A DNA stretch of 64,000 nucleotides. Origin: a virus. The DNA lies in IMG/VR virus record IMGVR_UViG_3300003323_000950, positions 11,659 to 75,658 of that record. One strand, 5' to 3'. The notes under the pieces were generated by a model. It did no database searches. It saw nothing but the letters and a program-made list of their open reading frames with translations, and had not been told where the DNA came from. The position numbers and the translations under genes are program-made. This document shows positions 26,987-61,814 of the stretch, piece after piece; the stretch's first letter is position 1; each line of letters opens with the position of its first letter.

Positions 26987-29257
26987 CTATTGTCTGGCGT
27001 CGGCCATTTGTTGTCTTTTAACTACCTGTGAATGTAATAAATCACCATCGAGAAGAACGTTCAGATATATCGGACGATCATCGGTAGTAGTCTTTTGTTG
27101 CTCTTGTCCGGCACCCCAATATTCGCCTCGCATTCCCATCAGCAAAGCCGTCTCGCTACGGTTCTCGTCCATAGCCTTGCCGAATGTATTTGCTACTGAG
27201 AACGGAGTAGCGTTCCTAAACATTTCGCCAGTACGCTGATAGGTATTTTTTATGTTTGCACCTGGAACATAACTCCAGTCTCCGGTTCCAGCAGCTACTG
27301 ACAAACCAGCTGCCCAGGCATTTAAATCTACCATCCTTGTCACTTCTTTAAAGTTTGTGATGATGAATGACATCGTATCAGCGATAGTCGACAATAAAAA
27401 AGCAAGTACACGAAAAGGTGTTGTAAGAACATATATAGCGCCAGCTGCTGTTGTTGCGAGTCCCCTGACAGTACCGAGATTACCAATCGTATCCGAAAAA
27501 GGAATATTTAAGTCAGATAGAACCTGCGCCAAATTATCGAATGATTCACCTACAACCGAGAACATTTCGCGTGCCACGGTATAGATTGAATATAGTCCAT
27601 GAACAAACTCCACGATGAATTCTTTAAACCTGACTATCCATGTGGATAACTTCATCACGAAGTCTAAAATTCCGATACGCTGCAGCGCCGTATACATGTT
27701 TTGAGACAACGTAAACGTTTCGCCATTCCATGATGTGAATATTTCGAATGCAGCCATGGCAACGCCACCAATCTTCTGCATAAGACCTATGAATCCTGTT
27801 AACGGACTTGTTTTACCGCTGAGAACGTCATTGAATTCGTCAATCGATTCTTTGATAAATATTATTGATCCAGCCACAGCAGCAACCGCTGCGATAACCG
27901 GTAGCAATTCTATTGCTAATGCAGCGCCAGCAGTAACCATCGCCCACATTTGAGGAATTAAGATAGATGTTACGAATCCAAGAACTACAAGGCTGGACGC
28001 CACAAGCGCCACACCTGCTGATATACCTACCAACCATTGGCCGAACTTCGTGGAGACAATACTCTGAATACCTTGAACCATATCTCTGAAGGTCTGTGCC
28101 ACTCCGCGGAGCGGACCTTCCTGTATGTCGCCAACCTTAATAAGCAACGTTTGCCAAGCGGAAGACAGGAGTTTTAGATCCATTTTCAGGTTATCCATGA
28201 TACCGGCCGATACCGCCGCCGAAACGCCTTTTGCTTCATTGTTCTTTTTGGTAAAATAATCGAGTGCATCGGCGCCTTTATAAACGACCTTGGTTCCATT
28301 CTCCATTGTTTCGAACTCCAGGTTCATCAACTGTGTCATCTCCTGGATGGCCTCGTTTCCAAATATGGTTGATATGGCCATATCCCGCTGCTGCGGCGTA
28401 AGTCCGGTTATTGATCGTTGGAATCTTCTAACCATCTCAGAAAGACCTACAAACTTGCCCTGTGCATCATAGGAGCTGAAATTCAACTGTGACATCAGAT
28501 CTGCAGCTTGCTTGGTAGGGTGTGACAGGTTGACCAGCGACGTGCCGAATGCCCTGGTACCGACAGAACCTCTCATACCGGAGTTCGCCATCATTTCGAT
28601 GTAGCCAGCCGCCTCTTCAAGACTTATGTTAAATGCCTTCGCCGTAGGACCTAGGTACTTCATGGCGTTCCCGAAGTTCTCGACGGACATATTCGACATG
28701 TTTGCGGCATTCACGATTACGTCGCCTATGCGCTCCATGTCGGATACCTTCAGTCCGAATTGGAACATGGTATCAGACGCTATGCCCGCTGCGTAATCCA
28801 AGCTTACTACGCCGGCTGTAGCCAGGTTTGTAAGGGCGGGTAACATTTCCAATTGCTGGTTGACGGCAAATCCAGCCTGCGCAAGCGTAACTTCCGCCTG
28901 CGCGATTTCCGTGGCATTGTAGATCGTGGTGTTCCCAAGATCGAACGCTGCCTCCTTCAGCTTTACTATTTCCTCTGCGGTAGCCTGGCCTATAGCTCCA
29001 GCTCGAGCTATCTGGAAATTGAATTCGGTTGATGCGCCCAAAGCAGCGATAAATGGCCCAAGCAACGCCGTTACCGTTGCCAGCGTTGCTATAAATCCAG
29101 ATTGTATCTTCTGGGCTGCACCCTGTATGTTGGTCGCTGCTCTGTCTACAGCACCGGAAAGACCATTTATTGAATCTTGAGCCTGCCTTGCTGGAGCGGA
29201 AGCGCCATCCTGAAATACGAAGGAGATACCCATCCCTAGTGATCCTGATCCAAACAT
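26987..29257 (-). CDS. Tape measure protein (TP901-like core)
   Basis: Start probably ATG 29257; LGNTTIYNATEIAQA...LAQAGF, MKYLGP.A, G.RGS..GT, FGNEA; hydrophobic middle. Confidence 0.92.
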   Translation of the reverse strand: MFGSGSLGMGISFVFQDGASAPARQAQDSINGLSGAVDRAATNIQGAAQKIQSGFIATLATVTALLGPFIAALGASTEFNFQIARAGAIGQATAEEIVKLKEAAFDLGNTTIYNATEIAQAEVTLAQAGFAVNQQLEMLPALTNLATAGVVSLDYAAGIASDTMFQFGLKVSDMERIGDVIVNAANMSNMSVENFGNAMKYLGPTAKAFNISLEEAAGYIEMMANSGMRGSVGTRAFGTSLVNLSHPTKQAADLMSQLNFSSYDAQGKFVGLSEMVRRFQRSITGLTPQQRDMAISTIFGNEAIQEMTQLMNLEFETMENGTKVVYKGADALDYFTKKNNEAKGVSAAVSAGIMDNLKMDLKLLSSAWQTLLIKVGDIQEGPLRGVAQTFRDMVQGIQSIVSTKFGQWLVGISAGVALVASSLVVLGFVTSILIPQMWAMVTAGAALAIELLPVIAAVAAVAGSIIFIKESIDEFNDVLSGKTSPLTGFIGLMQKIGGVAMAAFEIFTSWNGETFTLSQNMYTALQRIGILDFVMKLSTWIVRFKEFIVEFVHGLYSIYTVAREMFSVVGESFDNLAQVLSDLNIPFSDTIGNLGTVRGLATTAAGAIYVLTTPFRVLAFLLSTIADTMSFIITNFKEVTRMVDLNAWAAGLSVAAGTGDWSYVPGANIKNTYQRTGEMFRNATPFSVANTFGKAMDENRSETALLMGMRGEYWGAGQEQQKTTTDDRPIYLNVLLDGDLLHSQVVKRQQMADARQ

Positions 29258-29273
29258 AGTATCAAAAATATAC

Positions 29274-29304
29274 AAAAAAAGGGTGCCCTATTTATGAGGC
29301 ACCC
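29274..29304 (-). terminator. Terminator, followed by promoter TATTTTTG (29263-29270) for the tape measure gene
   Basis: GGGTGCCTCATAAATAGGGCACCC plus T7 on the minus strand. Confidence 0.75.
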
Positions 29305-29492
29305 GACCTGGTAGTTTTAGCGTTTTCAATCGCATCACGCTCCTTCTTTTTAGCATTAAGAAGCATTTCCATTAACCGATCTATCTCTTCGAAATACATG
29401 TCCTCCAAATCTTGAATTCTCAGCCCTGATAAGCCGCCATAGTTAAGGTTAAAGAATACATCTATTAGCGACCCAGGGAAGGGAAGAAAAAA
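29292..29492 (-). CDS. -1 frameshift extension of tail assembly chaperone (gpGT-like)
   Basis: Slippery T-TTT-TTC at 29492-29486; the -1 frame is open to TAA at 29294-29292. Confidence 0.8.
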   Translation of the reverse strand, partial: FFLPFPGSLIDVFFNLNYGGLSGLRIQDLEDMYFEEIDRLMEMLLNAKKKERDAIENAKTTRSGAS

Positions 29493-30307
29493 GCTGGCAC
29501 AGTAAGCAGATCAACATTTGCTACATCGCGGCTGTTTAGCTTCTTGATGGAAAGCATGGTGTCGATATTGCCTTCTACATTCTGGAATTCAACACGCAGG
29601 TGCTCTACATCGAGCATGTCAGTCTCTTCTGGATCAATAGCGCGCCATACTTCCTTACCGTCCTGGGATACGCCGAAAAGATACATCGCCCGGTGTATCG
29701 GGAACTGATCATTGATGTTGATTTTGGCTTCCGACTTCGACTTCTCAAGTTCCCGAGCGCCGGTAATCAGTTCCCATTTATACTGGCAGTCAGCTTCAGG
29801 CAGCGTGCCTCTGCGCTCCTTATTGGCCGCAAGCATCTCTTCATAAGAGTCGTATAAAATCGGGAACGGTTTATTATGTCCATCAGGATTATAATCGATG
29901 CCATCTTCCTTTTGCTTGCTCAAGTATTCGCGCATCCATATCGGTGGTGTTACCGGGAAATTCTCCGATGTAAAAGAGATATTATGACTGTCTGTTTGCT
30001 TGGTCTGATCGCCAGGAGAAACGGGCCAGGTATAGGTAAACTCGAAGCTTTCCTTGTACTTCAGAGTATGCTGGCGCCCCACGACGAGCATAAATTTTCT
30101 GTCTACGCTCGTGAGAGTATTGAAGTAATCAGCCGTTAGCTTTTGATTGCTGCCTATCCTGCGGATGGAAGACAAAAGCAACTCATTCAATTTCGCATTG
30201 GAATTTTCCGGCGTCAATTCAGAAATCAGGCGCTGCTGTTTACCTGTATAATTCACCACGGTGAATGCTACACCGGAGGGCGTAACGTAGTCTCTTATCC
30301 TTTCCAT
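29465..30307 (-). CDS. Tail assembly chaperone
   Basis: Between tube and tape measure; ends AFFFP over a slippery site. Confidence 0.8.
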   Translation of the reverse strand: MERIRDYVTPSGVAFTVVNYTGKQQRLISELTPENSNAKLNELLLSSIRRIGSNQKLTADYFNTLTSVDRKFMLVVGRQHTLKYKESFEFTYTWPVSPGDQTKQTDSHNISFTSENFPVTPPIWMREYLSKQKEDGIDYNPDGHNKPFPILYDSYEEMLAANKERRGTLPEADCQYKWELITGARELEKSKSEAKININDQFPIHRAMYLFGVSQDGKEVWRAIDPEETDMLDVEHLRVEFQNVEGNIDTMLSIKKLNSRDVANVDLLTVPAFFFPSLGR

Positions 30308-30348: not shown

Positions 30349-30416
30349 AAAAAAACCCCGAGCTAAAAGCCCGGGGCCATCAATCAAACTTTCATGCTGA
30401 CAACGTTGGATTGGCC
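30349..30416 (-). terminator. Terminator after the tube gene, preceded by a hairpin carrying an anti-leader sequence
   Basis: CCCCGGGCT-TTT-AGCTCGGGG plus T7; upstream ATGAAAGTTTGATTGAT. Confidence 0.75.
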
Positions 30417-30430
30417 GCGGTCAGGTCGGT

Positions 30431-30961
30431 TTATCCCAACGATGCGCCGGCTAGGAAAGCGACGCCACCAGCGCGAGCAGCTGAGCCTGCAAACAAAGCC
30501 TGCAAGCCTGGAGAATCCTTCGGGTAATAGAATTGGGTGGCGAAAGTAACGGTTTCAATGAAATTTTCGCCGTCACCGTTTGAATTTAAGTTACTCGGGG
30601 AAATCTTCATCGGCCATATGTCGCCCAGGAAGAAAGTTTGAATGGTAGTAACACCATCGTTGGCCAGGTGCTTCAAGAAGCCTGTTTTAATGAAGTCTTT
30701 ACGGATGCCGGCCACGCCTTCAGCGAACCAGTCCCATGCCCACGTATCAGCCTGGGTTGCCGGGCATAGTTTCTTCACAACCAAATCACCAACCTTCATT
30801 CTACCAGGTGTTTTGGCATTGGGGATATTCGCGGGCGCGCCGTGTTCGATCTTTGCATATTCTACATCCGGTGCCTGCACTTCCTGAATGAGGAACATGT
30901 TAATACCATCGATTTCAAGTATGTAGCGGAAGTTTTTCCGCGGGTTTGCTAATCCTGACAT
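30431..30961 (-). CDS. Tail tube protein (T4 gp19-like)
   Basis: NPRKNFRYILEIDG, KTPGRMKVGDLVVKK, WAWDW, WPMKI. Confidence 0.92.
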   Translation of the reverse strand: MSGLANPRKNFRYILEIDGINMFLIQEVQAPDVEYAKIEHGAPANIPNAKTPGRMKVGDLVVKKLCPATQADTWAWDWFAEGVAGIRKDFIKTGFLKHLANDGVTTIQTFFLGDIWPMKISPSNLNSNGDGENFIETVTFATQFYYPKDSPGLQALFAGSAARAGGVAFLAGASLG

Positions 30962-30972
30962 GGTTTTATTGT

Positions 30973-32547
30973 TTAAACTTCGCTTACTACAAATTTAACT
31001 GAATTAGAATCCGTGGGCGTCACATCGATCGCTATAGCTTCAGTAGCTACAATCGGAACGAATACAAAGCGGGCGCGGTACTTGCCGGCGTCGAGGTCCT
31101 GCTGAGTATTCAGCTTGGCATCTTCGCGACGATCAGCGTTTTGATCACCTTGCCAGAACCAGTTCGTGTCTTCGCCTGGTACAATTGCTTGGTTTTCCTC
31201 GAGCGATGTAATAAACGGTAGCACTCTGCGGTACATCGCTTTCCACATGATCGGGTTGTTCGGGTCAAACTGCCCAGGACGAATGAGCGGGCGCAGGCTT
31301 CTCATGATGAATACGCAAAGATCCCCGACGTTAGAGAACTTCAAAAGACTGGATGTATTCTTCCACAGAGACCTGTTGCCGTAGAACATGGTTCCAAAAG
31401 AGTCGTCCTGTACTACCGGGTTGATACCTTTCGGGTAAATACGATCGAAGTCGGCCGCATTTGCCTGTGATATTAAATTGAACGGGACGCCGTTGTTAGG
31501 GCTGATTACCACACCTCGCTCCGAGCCAGCGTCAGACCACCACGCGCCATATTTGGCGTCCACGCGCAGACGGTTAGCGAATACGTCTACTACGCCAGGA
31601 ATGTCAAAAGTCTTGTCTCTGTTTACGCTGTCGGTGATGTTCACATCACAAGCCACCAGGCGGCCGACCCATTCATTATGGGCAGTATGCACATAAGGGC
31701 TCAAGCCATCGCGGTAGTTCTCAAGACCGGTAGCATTTATGCCGAGAGGTGTTCCGATGTGGTAGGTAGCATCGCCGCGCGCCACTACATAGGCACGAAG
31801 ACCCTCGTCTACGTCATCATCACCAACCGCGCCGATGTTCGCGAAGCGGTATGAATCCGTAATCTTGTCAGCTACAAACCATCCATTTTGGCCCGCTGCA
31901 GTTCCTGTCCAGTCAGCCGCTACGATGTCGGTGATTACCTGGGCACCGGTAGCGAGCGTTCCAGTTCCGTTTTCGATTTGCGTCGCAATGCTCACGAGCT
32001 CAACACCAGCGCCTTTGCCCTTAAGAAGGTTGTTGAAATCTGCAATAGCCGCAGTATTCATAGTGCGGGGTATATCGTATACCGTTACAGATATATCAGA
32101 ATCGGTCAGCTGGATAGTGATGTCTTTGGCGTTGGCAAGTCCGGAAGCAGCGTTTACGATTGTGATCGTGGTGCCGTTATAACCGTCTCCAACTTCTTCC
32201 GCGCGCCAAACAGAGTTATTGGTAGTTACCGTTATGGTCGCTGTGGCCTTTGTTCCTGCAAGCGTGGATTTGTCTGTTACCGTAGCGTAATGGCCTGCGC
32301 GGATGACATAGAATTTAGCGCCGGCCCTGATCATTCGCAAGGCGTATGTTACGCCTTTATCATCGGTCCTCTCTCCTCCGAGCTTACGAACAAAACTCTG
32401 CGGGTCACCGACAAAAATAGGTGTGCCGATTTTGCCTCGCTTCGTTATCAGCTGAATGACACCGATACCTCCTATCGGCGTGTCTTTAAGGATTGACCTG
32501 TCTACAACGCCGATAATTACTTTCGGCGCACCAGTTAATTCTGCCAT
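30973..32547 (-). CDS. Tail sheath protein
   Basis: GAWWSDAG..RG, GINPVV, YGNRSL, FDPNNP.MW; directly upstream of the tube. Confidence 0.92.
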   Translation of the reverse strand: MAELTGAPKVIIGVVDRSILKDTPIGGIGVIQLITKRGKIGTPIFVGDPQSFVRKLGGERTDDKGVTYALRMIRAGAKFYVIRAGHYATVTDKSTLAGTKATATITVTTNNSVWRAEEVGDGYNGTTITIVNAASGLANAKDITIQLTDSDISVTVYDIPRTMNTAAIADFNNLLKGKGAGVELVSIATQIENGTGTLATGAQVITDIVAADWTGTAAGQNGWFVADKITDSYRFANIGAVGDDDVDEGLRAYVVARGDATYHIGTPLGINATGLENYRDGLSPYVHTAHNEWVGRLVACDVNITDSVNRDKTFDIPGVVDVFANRLRVDAKYGAWWSDAGSERGVVISPNNGVPFNLISQANAADFDRIYPKGINPVVQDDSFGTMFYGNRSLWKNTSSLLKFSNVGDLCVFIMRSLRPLIRPGQFDPNNPIMWKAMYRRVLPFITSLEENQAIVPGEDTNWFWQGDQNADRREDAKLNTQQDLDAGKYRARFVFVPIVATEAIAIDVTPTDSNSVKFVVSEV

Positions 32548-32572
32548 TGTGATGAATTGGGTTTTGGTTATT

Positions 32573-32580
32573 CAAATGTA
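32573..32580 (-). promoter_or_regulatory. -7 promoter element for the sheath-tube operon
   Basis: TACATTTG on the minus strand, without the second operator half. Confidence 0.6.
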
Positions 32581-36407: not shown

Positions 36408-37706
36408 TTACAGTTGAGAGAATGCCTGATTGATACGAGCATCGATATCCATGTATGCCGGGAACGGAGTAGAGGCGTAGGTTACGGCCTTGCTCTGTAT
36501 AACACGGGCGCTACGGTTGATGATGCCGAAATTGATCCAGTCGCTCATGAACATTTCCTCAGTCTGGTTCTGCGGATTGCGGCGGCGCTCAGTCATGAAA
36601 CCGCGGTAAGTCAGCTTCATCATCGCACGTTGAGGGTTCAGATACAACATCTGGTTAGCAGGCGTGATGTACGCATCAATATCGAAAGCATCAGGAACAC
36701 CAACGATCGAGCGAATGGTTGCCAGTCTGGTATCGCCATTGAAGCCTTCGAAGCGGTCAATGCCGGTGATATTGATAGCGTCGTCTTCAGAAGTGATCAG
36801 GCGGGTAGCAGGTGTACCCAGGCGGCGCATGCGGGTAAATACACGTTTGATATCGGCGTATGTGAATCCATTCGCAGTCACGTTTACACCAACAACAGGA
36901 GCCGATTCAGAGAGGTCAGCTTGCTCACCGTTCACCAGGACACTGAATGCCAAAGCATCTGCGCCGATCGCCATGTCGTTACCAACTTCCTGGAGGAAGG
37001 TGTAGATCATGTCGATAGAAGATGCCATCACCATCTCGTCCGTGATCGCGAAACCGGTACCGATCTTGAAGATGTTCAGGTCCTTTTTACCGAATTTAAC
37101 CGATCCGAAAGGAATGTTTGCACCTTCATTCACGCGCGACGGCATGCCATCGCCGCGTAAAATCATCGGCATGGTCACCTTCTGCTGGGCCATGTTCTGA
37201 GTCGTGGCAATCCAGTTCTGATGCAGCGACGCGTGCTGATAACCAGTGCGCACAGCGCTCATGAAGATCTCAGGAATGATGAACCGGAAAGAGGAATCAA
37301 CGCTTTGAGTGTTCACCGGCGCTGAATCGGCATATCTCATTTTCGAGTGATCGATCAGGAATTCTTCCACAGTGGACTTGTCCAGGCGGTGCATGCCGAG
37401 AGCAGCTGATACGTCGGAGAGGGAATCTTCACCGGGTGACAGGTCAAAGCAACGCAGGAACTGGCGTGTGTCTTTGAAACCGTAGACTTTGTTTAAGGCG
37501 TCGTCAAACGATACGTCTTTAGCCCGCAGCTTATTGCCTTTTTTGTCTACGGCAAGCCCGAGACGTGTTTCTGTGATCTGCTTACAGAATTCACCGAGTG
37601 TTTCTTCGACCGTGTGCCGTACTCTGGTGTCATCTTCCTTTCCAATGCCACCTTTCGCGAGTTCCATATTGTGCGCCTTTACGGCGCCCAGTTCTAATTT
37701 TTCCAT
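36408..37706 (-). CDS. Major capsid protein (HK97 fold)
   Basis: RFIIPE, VNEGANIP, KIGTGFAITDE, VLVNG; synteny and strong codon bias. Confidence 0.9.
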   Translation of the reverse strand: MEKLELGAVKAHNMELAKGGIGKEDDTRVRHTVEETLGEFCKQITETRLGLAVDKKGNKLRAKDVSFDDALNKVYGFKDTRQFLRCFDLSPGEDSLSDVSAALGMHRLDKSTVEEFLIDHSKMRYADSAPVNTQSVDSSFRFIIPEIFMSAVRTGYQHASLHQNWIATTQNMAQQKVTMPMILRGDGMPSRVNEGANIPFGSVKFGKKDLNIFKIGTGFAITDEMVMASSIDMIYTFLQEVGNDMAIGADALAFSVLVNGEQADLSESAPVVGVNVTANGFTYADIKRVFTRMRRLGTPATRLITSEDDAINITGIDRFEGFNGDTRLATIRSIVGVPDAFDIDAYITPANQMLYLNPQRAMMKLTYRGFMTERRRNPQNQTEEMFMSDWINFGIINRSARVIQSKAVTYASTPFPAYMDIDARINQAFSQL

Positions 37707-37752
37707 GTGATGAAATTTAAAAAATTGGGTTTTGGTTTATTCCGGTTAGGTC

Positions 37753-38205: not shown

Positions 38206-38257
38206 AAAAATATTGGGTTTTGGTAAAAATGATGACTAAAAAGTATATGATACCGGT

Positions 38258-39712
38258 TTACCGGAGTGATTCTGCAAGGTGCTTGTTACCCAGCACGGTC
38301 TTTGACTTCGGTGGTGTATTCGGATCGTCAGTCTGCTTGCTGCTGCGGAAGCTGATGTCTGTTGATCCGCATTTTGCGCAGTGGCCACCGAACTCAGTAA
38401 CCGCCTTTCCGCCGAACAATTTAAGTTTCGCGTTGACTGCCTCAAGGCTTGTCGCTGCATCGATCTCAGCTTCGATCGTAGGATCAACTTTATCGCCTGC
38501 AAACACGCCGTACAAACGCTTCGCTTCTTTCTTCGAAGCTTCCAGTACTTCAGTGCCTACTTTGGCCAGCGCTGCAGAAGCTGTCTTCTCGGCTTCCAAC
38601 GTTGTCTTAGCTGCCTTAATGGTTGCTATCTCAGCTTCAAGGCTCACCACCTTAGCATCCGCTGCTTCCTTCTCGGCGGTAACCTTCTGGAAGTTTTCTG
38701 CATTCGTTTTCATTTGGGTGAAGGCTTCTTTTGAAGCGATCACTTTTTCGGCGTCTGCTTTCGAAAACTTACCGGTGCCGATGTCCGCAGCCGTTGTACC
38801 GAAAATGCTCGCCAAGAGTTCTAACAGATCCTTGTTCATTTTTAAATTGTCGTTTTGTTCTTTATCAAAATGTAATGCGGAGTTTTGTAAATGTAATAGC
38901 TTTTGATCGTCGAAGCAATCGCACACAAAGTACTTGCGGTTAGGTTCATATATACGATTCTCTGGATCATCGGAGAACTTGTTCTTCGCGTACATGCTGG
39001 CATGATCTATATTAATCAACTCACCGTTTGGCGAAAGCATCTTCGCATAAGGATCAGCGCCTGCCCAAACCAAAGAGCTTTCTTCGTAACCGATGATCTT
39101 TGTGGCTATACGGCGAACCATCTCGTCGTCGATAATTTCACCAAGGTGCCAGTAAAAGTCTCCGTTAAATTCGAACTCGTGTGATGCTTCCCAGTCGAAC
39201 AATACGGTAACCGATGCAGATGTTATAGGCGATACAGGTGAAGACATCCGGCGCACCAATTCGGGGTTTAAGATACCATCTATAACGAATGGAGCCTCAA
39301 TGCCGCCAGGTACTTCGTCACCATTTGAGTTTTTATATCCAGGAACCCATTCGGTTTCCCCCACATTGCCTATTTCTTTGCCTACCATTTGAATGTGATT
39401 CAAGTAAGCAGGTTTATCTCTCAGCAAAGAGGTAGATTTCTTCAGCACCGTACCTTCAGAGAAATCTGTTGCTTTCCAGGAACCGCCGCCTACTATTGTC
39501 GCAGATATGTGCCGGAAAGGAAACATATAGAAGTCTTCCTTCTTTGGTATAAGCGGTATATCAAAGCTCTGCGCCGATGTCTTTCGATCCTTCGGCAACT
39601 CAAGCCCCATGCTTTCGAATATTCTCTTCGCTGCCTGTTCCTGAAGCAGCTTATCTGTATCGGATTGGACGCGGAATAACGTCAATGAACCCTTACCTCC
39701 GAACTTTGCCAT
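38258..39712 (-). CDS. Prohead protease/scaffold fusion
   Basis: Start probably ATG 39712; YLNH, SASV, EESSLVWAGADP protease motifs; Ala/Glu/Lys coiled coil; CAKCGS. Confidence 0.8.
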   Translation of the reverse strand: MAKFGGKGSLTLFRVQSDTDKLLQEQAAKRIFESMGLELPKDRKTSAQSFDIPLIPKKEDFYMFPFRHISATIVGGGSWKATDFSEGTVLKKSTSLLRDKPAYLNHIQMVGKEIGNVGETEWVPGYKNSNGDEVPGGIEAPFVIDGILNPELVRRMSSPVSPITSASVTVLFDWEASHEFEFNGDFYWHLGEIIDDEMVRRIATKIIGYEESSLVWAGADPYAKMLSPNGELINIDHASMYAKNKFSDDPENRIYEPNRKYFVCDCFDDQKLLHLQNSALHFDKEQNDNLKMNKDLLELLASIFGTTAADIGTGKFSKADAEKVIASKEAFTQMKTNAENFQKVTAEKEAADAKVVSLEAEIATIKAAKTTLEAEKTASAALAKVGTEVLEASKKEAKRLYGVFAGDKVDPTIEAEIDAATSLEAVNAKLKLFGGKAVTEFGGHCAKCGSTDISFRSSKQTDDPNTPPKSKTVLGNKHLAESLR

Positions 39713-39809
39713 GATGATTATATTGGTTTGATATTGCGAAACTACCAAAAAAATATATAATCGTTAAATCAATGCTTTTCATAACATCATCATTGACGTA
39801 TATTTAAGT

Positions 39810-40304
39810 ATGAAAACAGCTATCGATATTACTGGTCAAAAGTTTGGAAGGCTTACCGTTTTGAAAAGAAACGGTGAAAGCAAGAACGGCATGTCTTTAT
39901 GGTTATGCGTTTGCGAATGTGGTAGGAAAATAACTACTCGATCGAATGGATTGAGAAGCGGAAGGGCGAAAAGTTGTGGCTGTCATAGGAAAGATCGAAT
40001 GAAGACATTAAATCTTGATCATGGTTTAAGAAACCATTATATCTATAACATTTGGAGAGGCATTAAAAAGCGTTGCTATAATAAGAAACATAAAAGCTAT
40101 AATGATTATGGAGGTCGTGGAATCACGATGGCTCCTGAATGGCTAGATGACATAGTGGCTTTTTATAATCATGTTGGTGAAAGGCCATCGTCAACTCATC
40201 AAATTGATAGGGAAAATAATAATGGAAATTATGTTCCAGGAAACGTTCGATGGGTAACACCTAAAGTCAATTCAAATAATAGAAGGAAATCTAAACGGCC
40301 TTGA
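39810..40304 (+). CDS. HNH homing endonuclease-like protein
   Basis: DITGQKFGRLTV, WLCVCECG, SCGC, YGGRGI, IDRENNNGNY.PGNVRWVT...N..NRR. Confidence 0.9.
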   Translation: MKTAIDITGQKFGRLTVLKRNGESKNGMSLWLCVCECGRKITTRSNGLRSGRAKSCGCHRKDRMKTLNLDHGLRNHYIYNIWRGIKKRCYNKKHKSYNDYGGRGITMAPEWLDDIVAFYNHVGERPSSTHQIDRENNNGNYVPGNVRWVTPKVNSNNRRKSKRP

Positions 40305-42849
40305 AGTAGGCAATACATCTTCCTCTGCAATGCGGGTGATACGACGGCAGTGCAATACCTTTCGCCTGCAGTGATTTCGGATCCATGGTCACAAACTGAT
40401 CAAGCTTAATCGTGGTGGCGAATGGCGTATATTCCGGTGTTTTCGCTATGCCTTCCCGAAACAATGTCTCGTATTGCTGCACACTGTTTTTAACGCTGAA
40501 TATTTTGCCATTCATATGCTTGCAGTATCCGCACGTGAGTCTATCCATCACCTCAACAACCTGGTACTCGGCAATATCTGCCTGATTCAGGTATAGAAGG
40601 TTTCCGATGTTTCGCGCTTTGTTGGATGTAGTCTCTATGATTCGGCGGATCTTCCACGCTTCAAGTAGTACCTCCCTGGCAAATTCGAGTATAAATTCCT
40701 GTATCAAGCTACTGCCCTTGCCAATCGGAACATCGCCCTGTTCAAATTTCTGCTTCACCCAGTTTACAATTCGCTCTTGGGTATCCGGATCAGTTATAAA
40801 TTTGCCCAAATAGGTATGGTCTACTTCTTCCAGGAAGGCAATCGCGCGGGCATCCAACAGATTGAATGCAGCATCCGGGACGGTTACGAACGATACAGGT
40901 GATCGGGAGTATTCACTCGATTCAGAAAATATCGATTTGTCCTGGCGGTAAAAGCTGTAGATATCTTCTATGTTATTTGTGACAATGTCATGAACCGGCG
41001 TCACGAAATTGTTTTCCCAGCCCTCCAGAAGGCCGTAATACATAGCTGCTTGAACTTCACCAACTAATGCGGTTTCGCCTAAAGCTTTGAATTCTCTGGT
41101 TATTGACTTCTTTGACTTGTTAACGAAGGTTTCGAACTGGGTATTAACAGCGCCCAGATATGCCTTCAGAAAATCCACCAGATGGGCATCGTGATAATTG
41201 CCTATTTCGTCGAAAGAAGCGGCCCCGGAGCAATCTTCCGGGACCGCATAATCAAAAGGGGGCGCTTCGATGTTAAGCTTTTTACGGATACGGTCCAGCT
41301 TTTTTTCAGCGGTGGTCTGCGCTTTATTATCTTCCGATCCTCCTACTGCCTTCGACGGTAATATATTGGTTATTGGTGCATCAAGCTCAGGATCGTCGAC
41401 TCCTGCGTAATTGGCTGCTGCTTTCTGGCTCATAAAGCCTGAGAAATAATACCTGGCGGCATTTTCAATGCGCTCTTTCTTGGCCTGTTCGTCTTTGAGT
41501 TCATCGGTTATCGATGCCCGCTTGTATCGGATATTGCATACCGCCGGTCTAAATCCAGCCAGGCGGAGCTCGAGCATAAACACCCGTGATTTGAATTCAG
41601 CGAGTGTGCGCTGGAAATTGGCAACCTGCTGCGTCATCTTGGTAAGCACTACGCGGCCGAACGTCTCCGTAGTCGCGTAGTTCTCGCCGTGCATATTCGG
41701 GTCCTGCTTGAGACCTGAATAGATCAGGGATTTGACCATCTTCATTAATTGCTCACCGGACGCGCCGTTCAGTTCAGATCCCTGTAGGGTGAACTCGTGA
41801 TTATCTTTGTAACCCACCGTGAACCCACGAGAAAAACCATTTTCAACATCCTGTCTTACGCTGTTCAGATAGTTCCTGAGATAATTTTCATACTCTTCAG
41901 GTGATTTTTGTTGCTGTGGAGGTGCTTTCAACAATACCGACAGAAAGCCCATCATCCCGAGCCGGCGCATCATGTTCTTGAAGTTACCGATCATATCCTT
42001 TTCCGTCAGCAGGTCTTCAAGCGCTGAAGCGAAAGGTGGAACGGCAACCGGCGATATGCCCAGCCGGCGTATACCAAGGTAGGTGTACGTCGCCGGATTG
42101 AGCTGTATATAGCCAGGATATAGCCCGGTTCCGTTATTTGAGTTTACGCCTACTATTTGCTGCAGGGGAACGTGAACAGACTTAACCTTGTCGTAGCCAA
42201 ACCGGATGTAATATGGATCAACTCGAACAATGCTCTGGATGCCTTTAAGATTCGGCATGATCACAGCCTCTGCGCTTAGTGCGCCGGAGTACGCCATTTG
42301 GGTAAGAAGATCATTGTCGAGGGAGTCTTCGCCAGAGGCAAATTCGTACCAGCTCTTTACTCGAGTCTGGAGATACTTGCGCATCTCAACGCTTTGTTTC
42401 TCGCCGGTCTCGCCGAAGTCTATGTCATAATCTGTATTGCCGAGGGCAACGATATTTTCAACGGCCATAGATACGTGGCGATCCTGGAAAGCGTACTTCT
42501 GTAGGGTTTTGAGTATGGTGTAGTCGAACTCGTTATCCACCGGGGCGTTCATGTTGCCGAAGCCATAGTTCCCTTCGTACAGAGAGACCCGTCCGCTGGC
42601 GATTGGAGCCATGACGTTATTCGTCGTGTCATCCACCTTGTTCGACATCGCTGCGTACTTCTGTTCCTCTTCCTGGAAAACCTTGCGGATTATGTCACCA
42701 TATACCCTTTCGAATTCCGCTTCATTGATCTGCTGCGGGCTTGGTTCAGAAACAACTGCGGCTGATACGGCCGCTGGCTGGGATTCTTTTTCCGGCGCAG
42801 CCTTCACAGACTTACCCCAGCCGAAAGAAAAATTGACATTGAAACCCAT
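40291..42849 (-). CDS. Portal protein fused to a Mu gpF/SPP1 gp7-like minor head domain
   Basis: Portal-like region (VPPFASAL..L, RRLGMMG); C-terminal RRIIET, DRLTCGYCKHMNGKIF, LPSYHPHCRG. Confidence 0.85.
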   Translation of the reverse strand: MGFNVNFSFGWGKSVKAAPEKESQPAAVSAAVVSEPSPQQINEAEFERVYGDIIRKVFQEEEQKYAAMSNKVDDTTNNVMAPIASGRVSLYEGNYGFGNMNAPVDNEFDYTILKTLQKYAFQDRHVSMAVENIVALGNTDYDIDFGETGEKQSVEMRKYLQTRVKSWYEFASGEDSLDNDLLTQMAYSGALSAEAVIMPNLKGIQSIVRVDPYYIRFGYDKVKSVHVPLQQIVGVNSNNGTGLYPGYIQLNPATYTYLGIRRLGISPVAVPPFASALEDLLTEKDMIGNFKNMMRRLGMMGFLSVLLKAPPQQQKSPEEYENYLRNYLNSVRQDVENGFSRGFTVGYKDNHEFTLQGSELNGASGEQLMKMVKSLIYSGLKQDPNMHGENYATTETFGRVVLTKMTQQVANFQRTLAEFKSRVFMLELRLAGFRPAVCNIRYKRASITDELKDEQAKKERIENAARYYFSGFMSQKAAANYAGVDDPELDAPITNILPSKAVGGSEDNKAQTTAEKKLDRIRKKLNIEAPPFDYAVPEDCSGAASFDEIGNYHDAHLVDFLKAYLGAVNTQFETFVNKSKKSITREFKALGETALVGEVQAAMYYGLLEGWENNFVTPVHDIVTNNIEDIYSFYRQDKSIFSESSEYSRSPVSFVTVPDAAFNLLDARAIAFLEEVDHTYLGKFITDPDTQERIVNWVKQKFEQGDVPIGKGSSLIQEFILEFAREVLLEAWKIRRIIETTSNKARNIGNLLYLNQADIAEYQVVEVMDRLTCGYCKHMNGKIFSVKNSVQQYETLFREGIAKTPEYTPFATTIKLDQFVTMDPKSLQAKGIALPSYHPHCRGRCIAYFKAV

Positions 42850-44912: not shown

Positions 44913-45006
44913 TGCGAATCATGACCTTCGCATTGTGCCCAGGTGTTGGCTTTCGCTGAACCCGGGCGGATGTAGTTTAAAGTTATCAATCAATCAAACA
45001 GCATCC
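44913..45006 (-). ncRNA. Multi-hairpin small RNA B with anti-leader loop
   Basis: GGAUG..GUUUGA-UUGAUUGAUAACU-UUAAAC..CAUCC, then GCCCGGGU...ACCUGGGC and UGCGAA...UUCGCA hairpins. Confidence 0.65.
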
Positions 45007-45123: not shown

Positions 45124-45423
45124 TTATTCAGAAACCAGCATTTCAGCCGGGTAATAAGTCAATTCGAAAATATCAGGTTTGCATGGGTAGAACTCACCTT
45201 TAACGCCTTTGATAATATAGTCTCCTGGTAGCGCTTTGTGGTCGCCTTCAAGTGTTGGGATCGTCACGCTGAAGATAGGAGCGCCTTTACCGGCTTCGTA
45301 AGCTGTATCAGACTCCAATTCAGTTTTCAGTTCTGTGCCGACAAATCCATTTATCTCGTCGAGATTGTGACCATTGTATTGCACTGCCTCAATGGTGATA
45401 GGTTTTTTAGTATATTTTTTCAT
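45124..45423 (-). CDS. Conserved phage protein (PGDYG-like family)
   Basis: KKPITIEAVQY, IPTLEG.H.A.PGDYIIKGVKGEFYPCKPDIFELTY. Confidence 0.8.
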   Translation of the reverse strand: MKKYTKKPITIEAVQYNGHNLDEINGFVGTELKTELESDTAYEAGKGAPIFSVTIPTLEGDHKALPGDYIIKGVKGEFYPCKPDIFELTYYPAEMLVSE

Positions 45424-45437
45424 AAAGTTGATTTTCA

Positions 45438-45924
45438 AAGTAAGCCGCCAGTGTTACCCGGCGGCTTTGACGGTTTTTATGGATCTTACCGACAAACCGA
45501 TTTGTTTCAAAGAAACGACCTGCGTACACTCTCACTTTCAATTTCACCCTCTTTCTATCGAAAGGCTAATTTCCTGGGCAATACTACTACAGATCGTCTT
45601 GTCCGTTTCACAGACTTTGTCCGCATGCGCTTTGGACCAGCGTTGCATGTTTACATGCTCGTCCCGGTTAGCCGGGCGACTCCCAATTTAAAGATTAGGC
45701 TCTCTTGTCTTCGGCCAGCGGAGGGCTTCAACCTCCTGTCAACATTACACGTCTGTTTATCGACCGCCGTTTATTACAGACCTTTAACACGGCCGAATGC
45801 AAACGCCAGCATGTAACCGATGACAAACTTTCAACACGTTGCCGGCCTAGTGCCTGCGGGGCTGGGTTCATCACGCCCAGGCCCCTATGTGCCTTTTCAT
45901 TTTACCAAAACCCAAAGGACACAT
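45438..45924 (-). ncRNA. Large structured ncRNA of about 480 nt with 5' anti-leader hairpins and an embedded tRNA-like domain
   Basis: No minus-strand ORF in the track; own promoter; nested long-range helices with G-U pairs on the minus strand; terminal GC hairpin 45442-45467. Confidence 0.75.
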
Positions 45925-45925
45925 T

Positions 45926-45955
45926 CAAATTTATAGCCTTCTGCTAGTTATCAAA
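45926..45955 (-). promoter_or_regulatory. Bacteroidota sigma-A promoter for the ncRNA
   Basis: TTTG (45955-52), 18-nt spacer, TAAATTTG (45933-26). Confidence 0.75.
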
Positions 45956-46011
45956 AGAAGCCGATGGCATTAATTTTTATACTATATCAACTGTAAGGGT
46001 TACAAAGGGAC

Positions 46012-46044
46012 AAAGCTCGGCGGGCATATACGTCGGGCTTTTTT
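46012..46044 (+). terminator. Plus-strand terminator with no obvious upstream gene
   Basis: GCTCGGCG/CGTCGGGC stem with two G-U pairs on the plus strand, then T6. Confidence 0.65.
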
Positions 46045-46051
46045 ATTGCCC

Positions 46052-46294
46052 CTACAGTATTTGTATGCGTGACGGCTCTATGCGCCTGTGTTCATAGGCA
46101 CCGCTTTCGTTCTTTTCGAACGGCTCGATGATGGCATAGGTCCTGGAGAAAATCAACCCTACAGGCTGATCTGGCGGCTCAAGATCGCTCACGTATCCGA
46201 TCAGATAGGCTTTTTTAAGCTTGCCATCCTTTATATCCAGGAACAACACGCGCACGTGGGTAATTCTGCGGAGGAATCGAAACAGTCTATTCAT
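46052..46294 (-). CDS. Hypothetical protein
   Basis: Likely start MNRLFRFL, overlapping the upstream stop. Confidence 0.55.
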   Translation of the reverse strand: MNRLFRFLRRITHVRVLFLDIKDGKLKKAYLIGYVSDLEPPDQPVGLIFSRTYAIIEPFEKNESGAYEHRRIEPSRIQIL

Positions 46295-52582: not shown

Positions 52583-52608
52583 ATGTTTTTGATTGATTGA
52601 TGATGAAT

Positions 52609-56801: not shown

Positions 56802-56823
56802 CAAATGTAACACGAAGTTACAA
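56802..56823 (-). promoter_or_regulatory. Promoter TACATTTG overlapped by operator
   Basis: CAAATGTAAC-ACGAA-GTTACAA. Confidence 0.85.
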
Positions 56824-57043: not shown

Positions 57044-57652
57044 TTATTCCTCGTTAGGATCGAATACGGCTTCCATCTCAGGTTCTCCGTCTTTTTGTAC
57101 GGACATGGTTACGTTCTCGCCGTCTTCGTATGGGATCGTCAACTGCGCCTTCTCTTCGCGCTTGCCGCCTTCGTATAGCTCAGCCTCGGTAATGATTGCC
57201 TTGCAAAGCTTATCGAGTTGCTCGCAGTCGGCGTATTTGTCCGGATCGGATAAAGAAAGCTTACGCGTTACCAGGGTGCCGCGCTCGCCGTTGTCGCTTT
57301 CCTTCTGCGCGCTGATCTTAACCTTCGAAGTTTCGTCTTTGTCCATACCGGACAAACTGATACCGAGTACATGGTATTTGTCGAAGTTGGAGAACTCGCC
57401 TTTGAAGCCGAAAGCATCGATAACGATTTTGCGGAGCATCTTCATAGCGTTTATGAAGTCAGCGTGCGGAGGGAAGTTCCACTTTACGCCGGCTTCGGTC
57501 TTGATGAACTTCTCTTCGCTCACCAGGTCTCCGCTGGGCGTTCGCTCTGTGTAGATATAGGTCGTCTGCGACGAAATAACTACCTCCTTTTTGAGGACTT
57601 TAACCCCGGTTATCTGCCGGAATTTGTTTGCTGTGATCTCGTTTTTACTCAT
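57044..57652 (-). CDS. Hypothetical protein
   Basis: 202 aa; PHADF, LYEGGK; acidic tail. Confidence 0.75.
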   Translation of the reverse strand: MSKNEITANKFRQITGVKVLKKEVVISSQTTYIYTERTPSGDLVSEEKFIKTEAGVKWNFPPHADFINAMKMLRKIVIDAFGFKGEFSNFDKYHVLGISLSGMDKDETSKVKISAQKESDNGERGTLVTRKLSLSDPDKYADCEQLDKLCKAIITEAELYEGGKREEKAQLTIPYEDGENVTMSVQKDGEPEMEAVFDPNEE

Positions 57653-61286: not shown

Positions 61287-61814
61287 TTATTTCTGAAAGG
61301 CTTTAACGGTCATCTCGATACCCTGGCGCAGGCCGTCCATAAACAACTCCTGAGAAACGTTCTTAGCAGCTACAAGGCGCTCGCCGAGCACTACATTTTC
61401 CTGTTGCAGAGTATGTATTTGCATGTCTTTGGCTGCAACTGATCCTTTGAGGCCGGCGTTACTCATCTCGCTGTTTTCCAAAGCACGCTTAAAGTCAATT
61501 TCATTTACAGAGTTTTTATTGATTTCTTGGCTAAGCTGCTCGATTGTGTTGTCCTTTTCTAGGCAAGCGTTGCTGAGGTCTACAATCTTTTGTTCAGCAA
61601 TGGTACGCTCTGAAATTACAGAATTATACTGCGGAAGTAGTTCTTCATACAGAACCTTAAATGTTCTCTGTTCTTTTTCAATCGTCTTTAATTGCTCCTT
61701 TAGCCTGCTGATCTCGCAGTGCATTTGATACGGTGTTTTGTCAGTCGTGAAGTTTGTAGCCTCTGAAGTAAGGTCTGTTTGTGCTTCGGCTGATTGGGGA
61801 ATGTTGTTTGACAT
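61287..61814 (-). CDS. Coiled-coil protein
   Basis: Heptad pattern through most of its length. Confidence 0.7.
   Translation of the reverse strand: MSNNIPQSAEAQTDLTSEATNFTTDKTPYQMHCEISRLKEQLKTIEKEQRTFKVLYEELLPQYNSVISERTIAEQKIVDLSNACLEKDNTIEQLSQEINKNSVNEIDFKRALENSEMSNAGLKGSVAAKDMQIHTLQQENVVLGERLVAAKNVSQELFMDGLRQGIEMTVKAFQK

Follow-up and report, generated by a model that had tools for sequence, protein, structure and literature searches.

In the genome of an uncultured phage (IMG/VR record IMGVR_UViG_3300003323_000950), two tandem hairpins predicted at 45858-45924 on the minus strand include, in the top of the first (hairpin 1), the exact complement of an A/C-rich box that lies shortly before several start codons. 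Our preferred, though tentative, interpretation is that the top of hairpin 1 would occlude this leader tag by antisense pairing and thereby repress translation of a few genes, mostly encoding virion proteins. The stretch analyzed (the window, 64,000 nt) corresponds to bases 11659-75658 of the 75,658-bp genome, which carries direct terminal repeats and nearly all of its genes on the minus strand; unless stated otherwise, positions are those of the window.

The core of the box is the 12-mer ACCAAAACCCAA, of which the genome contains exactly four copies: three are sense and stop 7, 18, and 9 nt short of the start codons of, respectively, a 150-aa head-module gene (ATG 38205), the gene for the major capsid protein (ATG 37706), and that for the sheath (ATG 32547), and the fourth is antisense, at 45915-45904 in the apical part of hairpin 1. 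The match is longest in the leader of the 150-aa gene, where the hairpin-1 seed UUGGGUUUUGGUAAAA (45915-45900, minus strand; GGGUUUUGG is part of it) faces its complement TTTTACCAAAACCCAA (38228-38213) over 16/16 positions, or over 19 bp with one bulge when UCA is included; it is 12/12 in the capsid and sheath leaders (Table 1). The loop of the second hairpin (hairpin 2) contains GUGAUGAA (45874-45867), whose complement TTCATCAC is found at 37714-37707 and 32556-32549, so that this loop complements UUCAUCAC, which directly abuts the capsid and sheath start codons; together the two blocks make up 20 contiguous nt of the sheath leader. The coordinates and matches given in an earlier, sequence-only reading of the window all proved correct, and the genome-wide motif count it had suggested finds the 12-mer only in three leaders and as one antisense copy. 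Its description of the targets as genes for virion proteins holds for capsid and sheath, both identified by PHROGs (Table 1), but its "decoration" label is not established: the 150-aa gene, which sits between the protease and capsid genes, has no Pfam or PHROG match.

The lengths of these matches prove nothing by themselves, because exact inverted matches that reach 12 nt or more number 220 in the whole genome (~170 expected), three of them being 16-mers; a lone 12/12 or 16/16 inverted match is thus not significant in this genome. The significance stems instead from matching a repeated leader tag. When all 93 minus-strand leaders (-35 to -1) were compared with all 5.8 kb of non-coding, non-leader DNA, using 2000 dinucleotide shuffles, i) 17 antisense-to-leader 12-mers were found in that DNA, against a shuffle mean of 1.5 (maximum 11), and ii) two non-coding sites were matched by at least three leaders, against 0.0015 in the shuffles. 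In other tests, leaders that were complemented without reversal, or reversed without complementation, gave as composition controls 2 and 5 twelve-mers, respectively, against 25, and among 1500 shuffles of the 67-nt RNA 1.1% produced a match of 12 nt or longer, none of which reached 16 nt. The hairpin-1 match is therefore solid, and the complementarity to virion-gene leaders claimed earlier is real and non-random. The hairpin-2 loop match is suggestive: of random 9-nt loops, 0.26% match one of the tagged leaders over 8 nt or more (p~0.003). TTCATCAC is indeed present at both starts, but with 6 copies in the window against 2.6 expected it is weak alone, and its duplex does not rank high in the genome-wide scan.

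A fourth target, new in this analysis, is the leader of a 155-aa gene whose product has no family match in Pfam or PHROGs. The site, CAUUUUACUAAAACCC, ends 8 nt before ATG 2477, an in-frame codon of the open reading frame (ORF) listed as 2010-2534; ATG 2477 is probably the true start, the listed ATG 2534 being buried in the stem of an 8-bp hairpin (CTTCGCAT...ATGCGAAG). One of the 16 pairs made with hairpin 1 is G·U, where a U replaces the C of the tag; this leader differs from the tag at two DNA positions and still forms all 16 RNA pairs, the G·U position being a mismatch as DNA. It resembles the leader of the 150-aa gene, and an TACATTTT element precedes ATG 2477. A scan of the whole transcribed strand with the hairpin-1 seed ranks the 150-aa leader first (-23.9 kcal/mol), followed by 2501-2486 in the 155-aa leader, one coding-region site, the sheath leader, and the capsid leader; four of the five best sites are thus translation-start regions. 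The four targets lie 7.7, 8.2, 13.3, and 43 kb downstream of the hairpins on the same strand. The 155-aa gene adjoins another (324-1967) whose 547-aa product is ParB-like in its N-terminal domain (phrog_3264/4715).

Table 1. Positions of the hairpins, their predicted transcription signals, the tagged leaders, and annotated structural genes (window coordinates)
Feature	Coordinates	Strand	Details
Hairpin 1	45887-45924	minus	Stems AUGUG/CACAU and CCUUU/AAAGG; weak apical GUUUU/AAAAU helix
Hairpin 2	45858-45885	minus	G+C-rich 9-bp stem with one bulge; open 9-nt loop CGUGAUGAA (45875-45867)
Predicted Bacteroidota-type promoter	45926-45955	minus	-33 TTTG 45955-45952; 18-nt spacer; -7 TAAATTTG 45933-45926
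Hairpin directly 3′ of the stop of the upstream gene (46052)	46012-46041		11-bp stem
Putative structured RNA body or long 5′ untranslated region	45441-45857	minus	~420 nt, to hairpin 45476-45444 just before the MazG-like gene
Target 1: 150-aa head-module leader (ATG 38205)	38213-38232	minus	16/16 with hairpin 1; site -27 to -8
Target 2: major capsid leader (ATG 37706)	37707-37736	minus	ACCAAAACCCAA 37736-37725; 10-nt spacer; UUCAUCAC 37714-37707
Target 3: sheath promoter and leader (ATG 32547)	32549-32580	minus	ACCAAAACCCAA 32568-32557; UUCAUCAC 32556-32549
Target 4: 155-aa gene leader (ATG 2477)	2486-2501	minus	CAUUUUACUAAAACCC; 16 contiguous pairs with 45913-45898
Portal fused to SPP1-gp7-like domain	40291-42849
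Prohead protease	38258-39748
Major capsid protein	36408-37706		phrog_3922
Sheath	30973-32547		phrog_23
gp19-like tube	30431-30961

The phage appears to infect a host of the Bacteroidota type, as suggested by gene starts without Shine-Dalgarno (SD) sequences, leaders that are A/C- or A/U-rich, the placement of TAnnTTTG in spacers (13 of 30 minus-strand sites fall in non-coding DNA, which is 10% of the genome, against 1 of 18 on the plus strand), and a portal relative found by protein search in a Crocinitomicaceae metagenome-assembled genome. Bacteroidota promoters have the consensus TTTG/TAnnTTTG, and translation in this phylum makes no use of SD pairing, initiation being adjusted through the structure of the leader (PMC6847099). 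Searches for tRNA and tmRNA genes found none, and Pfam and PHROGs annotation of the neighboring genes gave little more.

The sequence-only reading had placed the hairpins at the 5′ end of an RNA, and the promoter-like context agrees with this: a match to the Bacteroidota consensus lies just upstream (Table 1), from which a start at 45921 is predicted by the G-at--5 rule (PMC6847099), a G at 45922 or 45920 also being possible. The seed would then occupy +7 to +22 of the RNA, both the promoter and the 5′ end of which are matches to a consensus only. The hairpin at 46012-46041 has a T-run on the plus strand and, on the minus strand, an A-run plus a short tail rich in U; it probably terminates the upstream unit, possibly bidirectionally, and would thereby isolate the promoter of the RNA. 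On the 3′ side, hairpin 2 is followed by GCAGGCACUAGG and not by a stem plus U-tract, it is absent from terminator scans, and the next minus-strand hairpin, at 45476-45444, lacks a U-run. Because no terminator follows hairpin 2, the hairpins would be the 5′ module of a longer RNA rather than a free-standing 67-nt small RNA (sRNA). The longer RNA could be either a structured non-coding tract of ~480 nt or a long 5′ untranslated region (UTR) belonging to the MazG-like gene; the 552-nt tract is densely structured by prediction (z = -3.1), and the same two hairpins are predicted within it and in isolation. Rfam returned no family at the gathering score over the whole window and, at E up to 10, four chance-level matches in 45300-46200, none of them to C4; nor do the small ORFs of the tract, including one starting from GUG/AUG in loop 2, have a homolog in any locus compared. 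The MazG-like gene (phrog_419/1810) has a likelier start at ATG 45423, behind an AAAAUCAACUUU leader, than at the listed TTG 45438.

A transcript start can also be predicted for one of the targets. The sheath gene is preceded by a -7 element, TACATTTG (32580-32573), from which the same rule predicts that transcription begins with the first base of the tag (+1 at 32568); the predicted leader is the 21-nt ACCAAAACCCAAUUCAUCACA, and the two complementary blocks cover 20/21 of it. No TTTG is present at -33 of this promoter, and an activator may be required.

The calculated energies are favorable. The 12-bp core duplex is worth -17.1 kcal/mol, the 16-bp duplex -21.2 kcal/mol, and the 8-bp loop-2 duplex -8.7 kcal/mol, and opening costs +0.13 kcal/mol for loop 2 and +0.2 to +2.9 kcal/mol for the target sites. 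The net energy (duplex plus seed opening plus target opening) with hairpin 1 alone comes to about -16 kcal/mol for the 150-aa leader, -11 kcal/mol for sheath, and -10 kcal/mol for capsid, values within the usual sRNA-mRNA range. No competing partner for either loop was found in the downstream RNA, where the best alternatives reach -11.5 and -9 kcal/mol. A whole-molecule duplex prediction for the 67-nt RNA against the leaders was discarded, as it produced unrealistic long interior loops.

We propose that the hairpins would head a minus-strand transcript made from a host-type (Bacteroidota sigma-A) promoter, and that the G/U-rich top of hairpin 1 would serve as the antisense seed for a phage-private A/C-rich tag, (UUUU)ACCAAAACCCAA. 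The tag would fill the region where ribosomes land, 7-30 nt before the capsid, 150-aa, sheath, and 155-aa starts, and a duplex of 12-19 bp there should block loading of the 30S subunit and so repress translation, because a host class that does without SD pairing depends on an unstructured leader; the duplex may additionally be marked for cleavage. The sheath mRNA would begin with the tag itself, and all 21 nt of its leader would thus be covered. A short additional contact beside the capsid and sheath starts may come from the open loop of hairpin 2, but this would be auxiliary at most. The role of such an RNA might be to restrain virion-protein synthesis, or to set a threshold for it, until late mRNAs exceed the RNA.

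Several observations weigh against this proposal. The 12-mer, described in the sequence-only reading as lying mostly in the loop of hairpin 1, is indeed apical but partly paired: two of its U residues belong to the CCUUU/AAAGG stem, the inner GUUUU/AAAAU helix is weak, and opening the partly sequestered seed costs 4.6 to 5.5 kcal/mol. The outer 3 bp of hairpin 1 would fall outside the RNA if +1 is 45921; the two-hairpin fold is a modest gain over shuffles (z = -1.6), and the plus strand yields a comparable fold (-26 kcal/mol, z = -2.2). No canonical minus-strand terminator occurs from 46000 to ~35600, and thus no discrete small RNA is defined. The tube gene, whose product is equally high-copy, carries no tag. 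Both blocks match, but the case for the bipartite recognition suggested earlier is weaker than it was put: loop 2 contributes only an A/U-rich 8-mer worth ~-9 kcal/mol, and the geometry is awkward. Read 5′ to 3′, loop 1 precedes loop 2 in the RNA and block 1 likewise precedes block 2 in the capsid and sheath leaders, a crossed order in which the two contacts cannot form a single continuous antiparallel duplex; moreover, a 9-nt loop cannot stay closed with 8 pairs, and the 8-bp helix would be strained. As the sheath leader has no linker between the two blocks, both loops could hardly be fully paired there at once; full simultaneous pairing is plausible only on the capsid leader, with its 10-nt linker, or once the inner stem of hairpin 2 has melted. 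Finally, in four complete distant relatives (G002-G005, ~31-35% portal identity) we found no tag, and no antisense element for virion genes beyond low-complexity controls.

We were unable to find any close relative in IMG/VR, JGI contigs, GTDB genomes, INPHARED, or PLSDB. A single-protein portal scan of IMG/VR gave none; profile scans of IMG/VR and JGI contigs returned only relatives at 31-45% portal identity, INPHARED and PLSDB at most ~31%, and a protein search yielded portal homologs of 44-53% identity on long Logan and JGI contigs, several of them of 36-78 kb. A search for sequencing runs containing the phage listed none, RNA or DNA. The exact 16-mer has 64 matches in IMG/VR, none with flanking similarity or related proteins; the 19-nt operator-promoter word of the phage had 0 matches in the relative search, and the spacer DNA has no homolog in five distant relatives. 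In G002-G005 the leaders of the 150-aa homolog, capsid, and sheath genes differ from those of our phage. G003 has a case of its own, independent and with a different motif: a minus-strand hairpin at ~1650-1730 of that genome, with a 10-bp CUAUCCUCCC/GGGAGGAUAG stem and a U-rich tail, encloses AUUAUUGUUGCUAA, the antisense of a motif, AGCAACAAUAA, that five or more G003 genes carry in their leaders. Taken together, the lack of the system in four distant relatives and the separate case in G003 suggest that the virion-gene system is lineage-specific and that its general design recurs. In the same genome (~29101-30303), the leaders of the capsid gene and the 150-aa homolog hold 10-mers that are reverse complements of each other (ATCGAATTAA and TTAATTCGAT). 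G005 is a provirus by IMG/VR classification; the lifestyle of our phage could be lytic or plasmid-like.

The hairpin-1 seed is not the only antisense element in this genome. An unbiased list of non-coding antisense-to-leader sites contains three that match several leaders (45900-45915, 44985-44999, and 30379-30395), the latter two being antisense to a second leader class, AATCAATCAAAC. The first of these two lies in a minus-strand hairpin at 44967-45005, with a GGAUG/CAUCC stem, a weak inner helix, and a top, UUGAUUGAUUGAUAA, that matches AATCAATCAAAC leaders over 14/14 positions at 52588-52601, 12/12 at 61826-37, and 13/13 in a gene outside the window. The other, GAAAGUUUGAUUGAU in the minus-strand region 30354-30395, is a single-stranded segment directly 5′ of the strong terminator that follows the tube gene; it is antisense over 12-14 nt to the leaders of 57044-57652, 61287-61814, 29465-30307, and one gene outside the window, a layout reminiscent of the classic 3′-UTR type of sRNA. 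Near-identical promoters, TAAC(T/G)TCGTGT-TA(C/T)ATTTG, occur at 56809, 52616, 47062, 14318, 15383, 9162, and genome base 5421, with a conserved, operator-like block just upstream of the -7 element, and the genes behind them carry the AATCAATCAAAC-type leader. Wherever a leader tag recurs away from the leaders, the transcribed strand carries it in antisense and in an RNA-type context (two hairpin tops and one pre-terminator stretch), which favors action at the level of RNA over a DNA site. One could go further and suppose that the phage runs an RNA-based translation program with at least two private classes of leader tag, ACCAAAACCCAA marking virion genes and AATCAATCAAAC marking genes behind operator-type promoters, and with antisense elements for each, displayed at the hairpin tops 45900-15 and 44985-99 and in the 3′-UTR seed 30379-95, so that whole gene classes would be switched by RNA-RNA pairing and not by proteins; such a general and undescribed layer in Bacteroidota phages is possible but, in our judgment, doubtful.

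The complementarity could have arisen or be used in other ways. It might be a relic, an inverted duplication of a ~22-nt leader of the 150-aa/155-aa type (CAUUUU(U)AC.AAAACCC) into the spacer, with no function and with the hairpin incidental. The complement of 45894-45918 does resemble the 150-aa and 155-aa leaders beyond the 12-mer, and the system is absent from distant relatives; we nevertheless consider a relic unlikely, as decay would be expected yet 16/16 positions are intact, the element sits exactly at the top of a hairpin with a 10-bp stem, 6 nt past the predicted transcription start, the neighboring loop independently complements the second block found in two of these leaders (p~0.003), in an order unlike that of any single duplication, and another leader tag has two more antisense copies in RNA-type contexts. 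Pairing could, on the other hand, be positive, the RNA shielding the 5′ ends of late mRNAs from 5′-end-dependent decay or bringing them to a factor bound to the RNA body, and so raising virion output. It would suit such a role that the tag is the predicted extreme 5′ end of the sheath mRNA, that the hairpin-1 site on capsid ends 19 nt before the AUG, at the edge of the ribosome footprint, and that a structured RNA of ~420 nt is joined to the hairpins; but the leaders are already unstructured, as their low opening costs show, which leaves nothing to unmask, the duplex ends 8-10 nt from the AUG on the 150-aa, 155-aa, and sheath mRNAs, and loop 2 would cover positions -1 to -9, so that we regard activation as quite unlikely.

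That the 12-mer acts as DNA, as an operator or late-promoter element bound in either orientation by a phage DNA-binding protein, is distinctly improbable. Two copies do come right after -7 elements (spanning +1 to +12 for sheath and +7 to +18 for the promoter of the RNA), the 155-aa leader follows the TACATTTT element, and the plus strand folds as well as the minus; yet no promoter-like element lies upstream of the capsid and 150-aa copies, the four sense copies are tied to start codons (at 7-18 nt) and not to promoters, the 155-aa variant keeps its RNA pairs despite two DNA differences, and the second block differs in order and spacing at the hairpin locus, so that no composite site results. 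We give very little weight to a plus-strand decoy, in which a transcript of the other strand would show the sense tag in a loop and titrate a leader-binding partner: the plus strand does fold, with the energy and z-score given above, and a strong terminator-like hairpin with a T-run stands on that strand at 46012-46050, but the plus strand has no TAnnTTTG in or near the tract (its sole non-coding match is elsewhere), nearly all genes are on the minus strand, and the 46012-46041 hairpin also ends an upstream minus-strand gene. Chance, with the match picked out by looking for complementarity, is scarcely credible: inverted matches of this length are common in the genome and the 8-mer recurs in the window, but p stays below 0.001 in tests that take every leader and the whole of the non-coding DNA into account. 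We also considered, and rejected, an inversion site formed by the 16-bp inverted repeats 7.7 kb apart; there is no recombinase nearby, and three direct copies would invite deletions.

The proposed mechanism resembles several known systems. In GcvB-type regulation, a G/U-rich seed silences C/A-rich leader elements of many mRNAs, and the present case is alike in setting a G/U-rich seed against an A/C-rich, single-stranded element before start codons and in assigning several targets to one RNA; it differs in that Rfam gives no homology and the tag is phage-private and 12 nt long. A parallel in a phage is the c4 RNA of P1/P7, short loop segments of which, in the account of Citron and Schuster 1990 given in PMC12197685, pair near the ribosome-binding region of a phage mRNA and block its translation. 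Both would be phage-encoded RNAs that face two target blocks with two loop-displayed segments, in our case in silico and in the capsid and sheath leaders. The differences are that i) the hairpins described here match no Rfam model, C4 included; ii) c4 controls one immunity operon (icd/ant), which encodes c4 itself, whereas here four unlinked, mostly virion genes are tagged 7 to 43 kb away, in a host without SD pairing; and iii) the c4 seed is in a processed RNA, whereas ours would be at a primary 5′ end.

Trans-acting sRNAs with 5′ seeds on start regions are known to work in this phylum from Bacteroides GibS (PMC7366714), which like the predicted RNA has its own TAnnTTTG-type promoter. GibS is ~145 nt long, with a largely unstructured 5′ end, and ends at a terminator (PMC7366714); here, in contrast, the seed is in the top of a hairpin, no terminator follows, the hairpins are fused to a ~420-nt body or 5′ UTR, and the target genes belong to the phage. 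Bacteroidota have no known Hfq (PMC7366714), a further difference from GcvB-type regulation. By analogy, the RNA would function like c4 RNA and GibS while being a member of neither family.

We wish to stress what would follow at each level of interpretation. To our knowledge, almost nothing is known of how Bacteroidota phages time and dose their proteins, and the usual control of ribosome-binding sites does not apply, because their hosts ignore SD sequences. Should the element be no more than a relic, it would nonetheless record a striking leader tag, private to the phage, that is the predicted exact 5′ end of the sheath mRNA. If the antisense reading is true, a leader tag and its mirror RNA would form a compact control circuit for the most abundant virion proteins, would offer a handle to tune or silence phage genes in Bacteroidota, where antisense tools are otherwise lacking, and would extend the idea of P1 c4 from an immunity switch to the control of structural genes.

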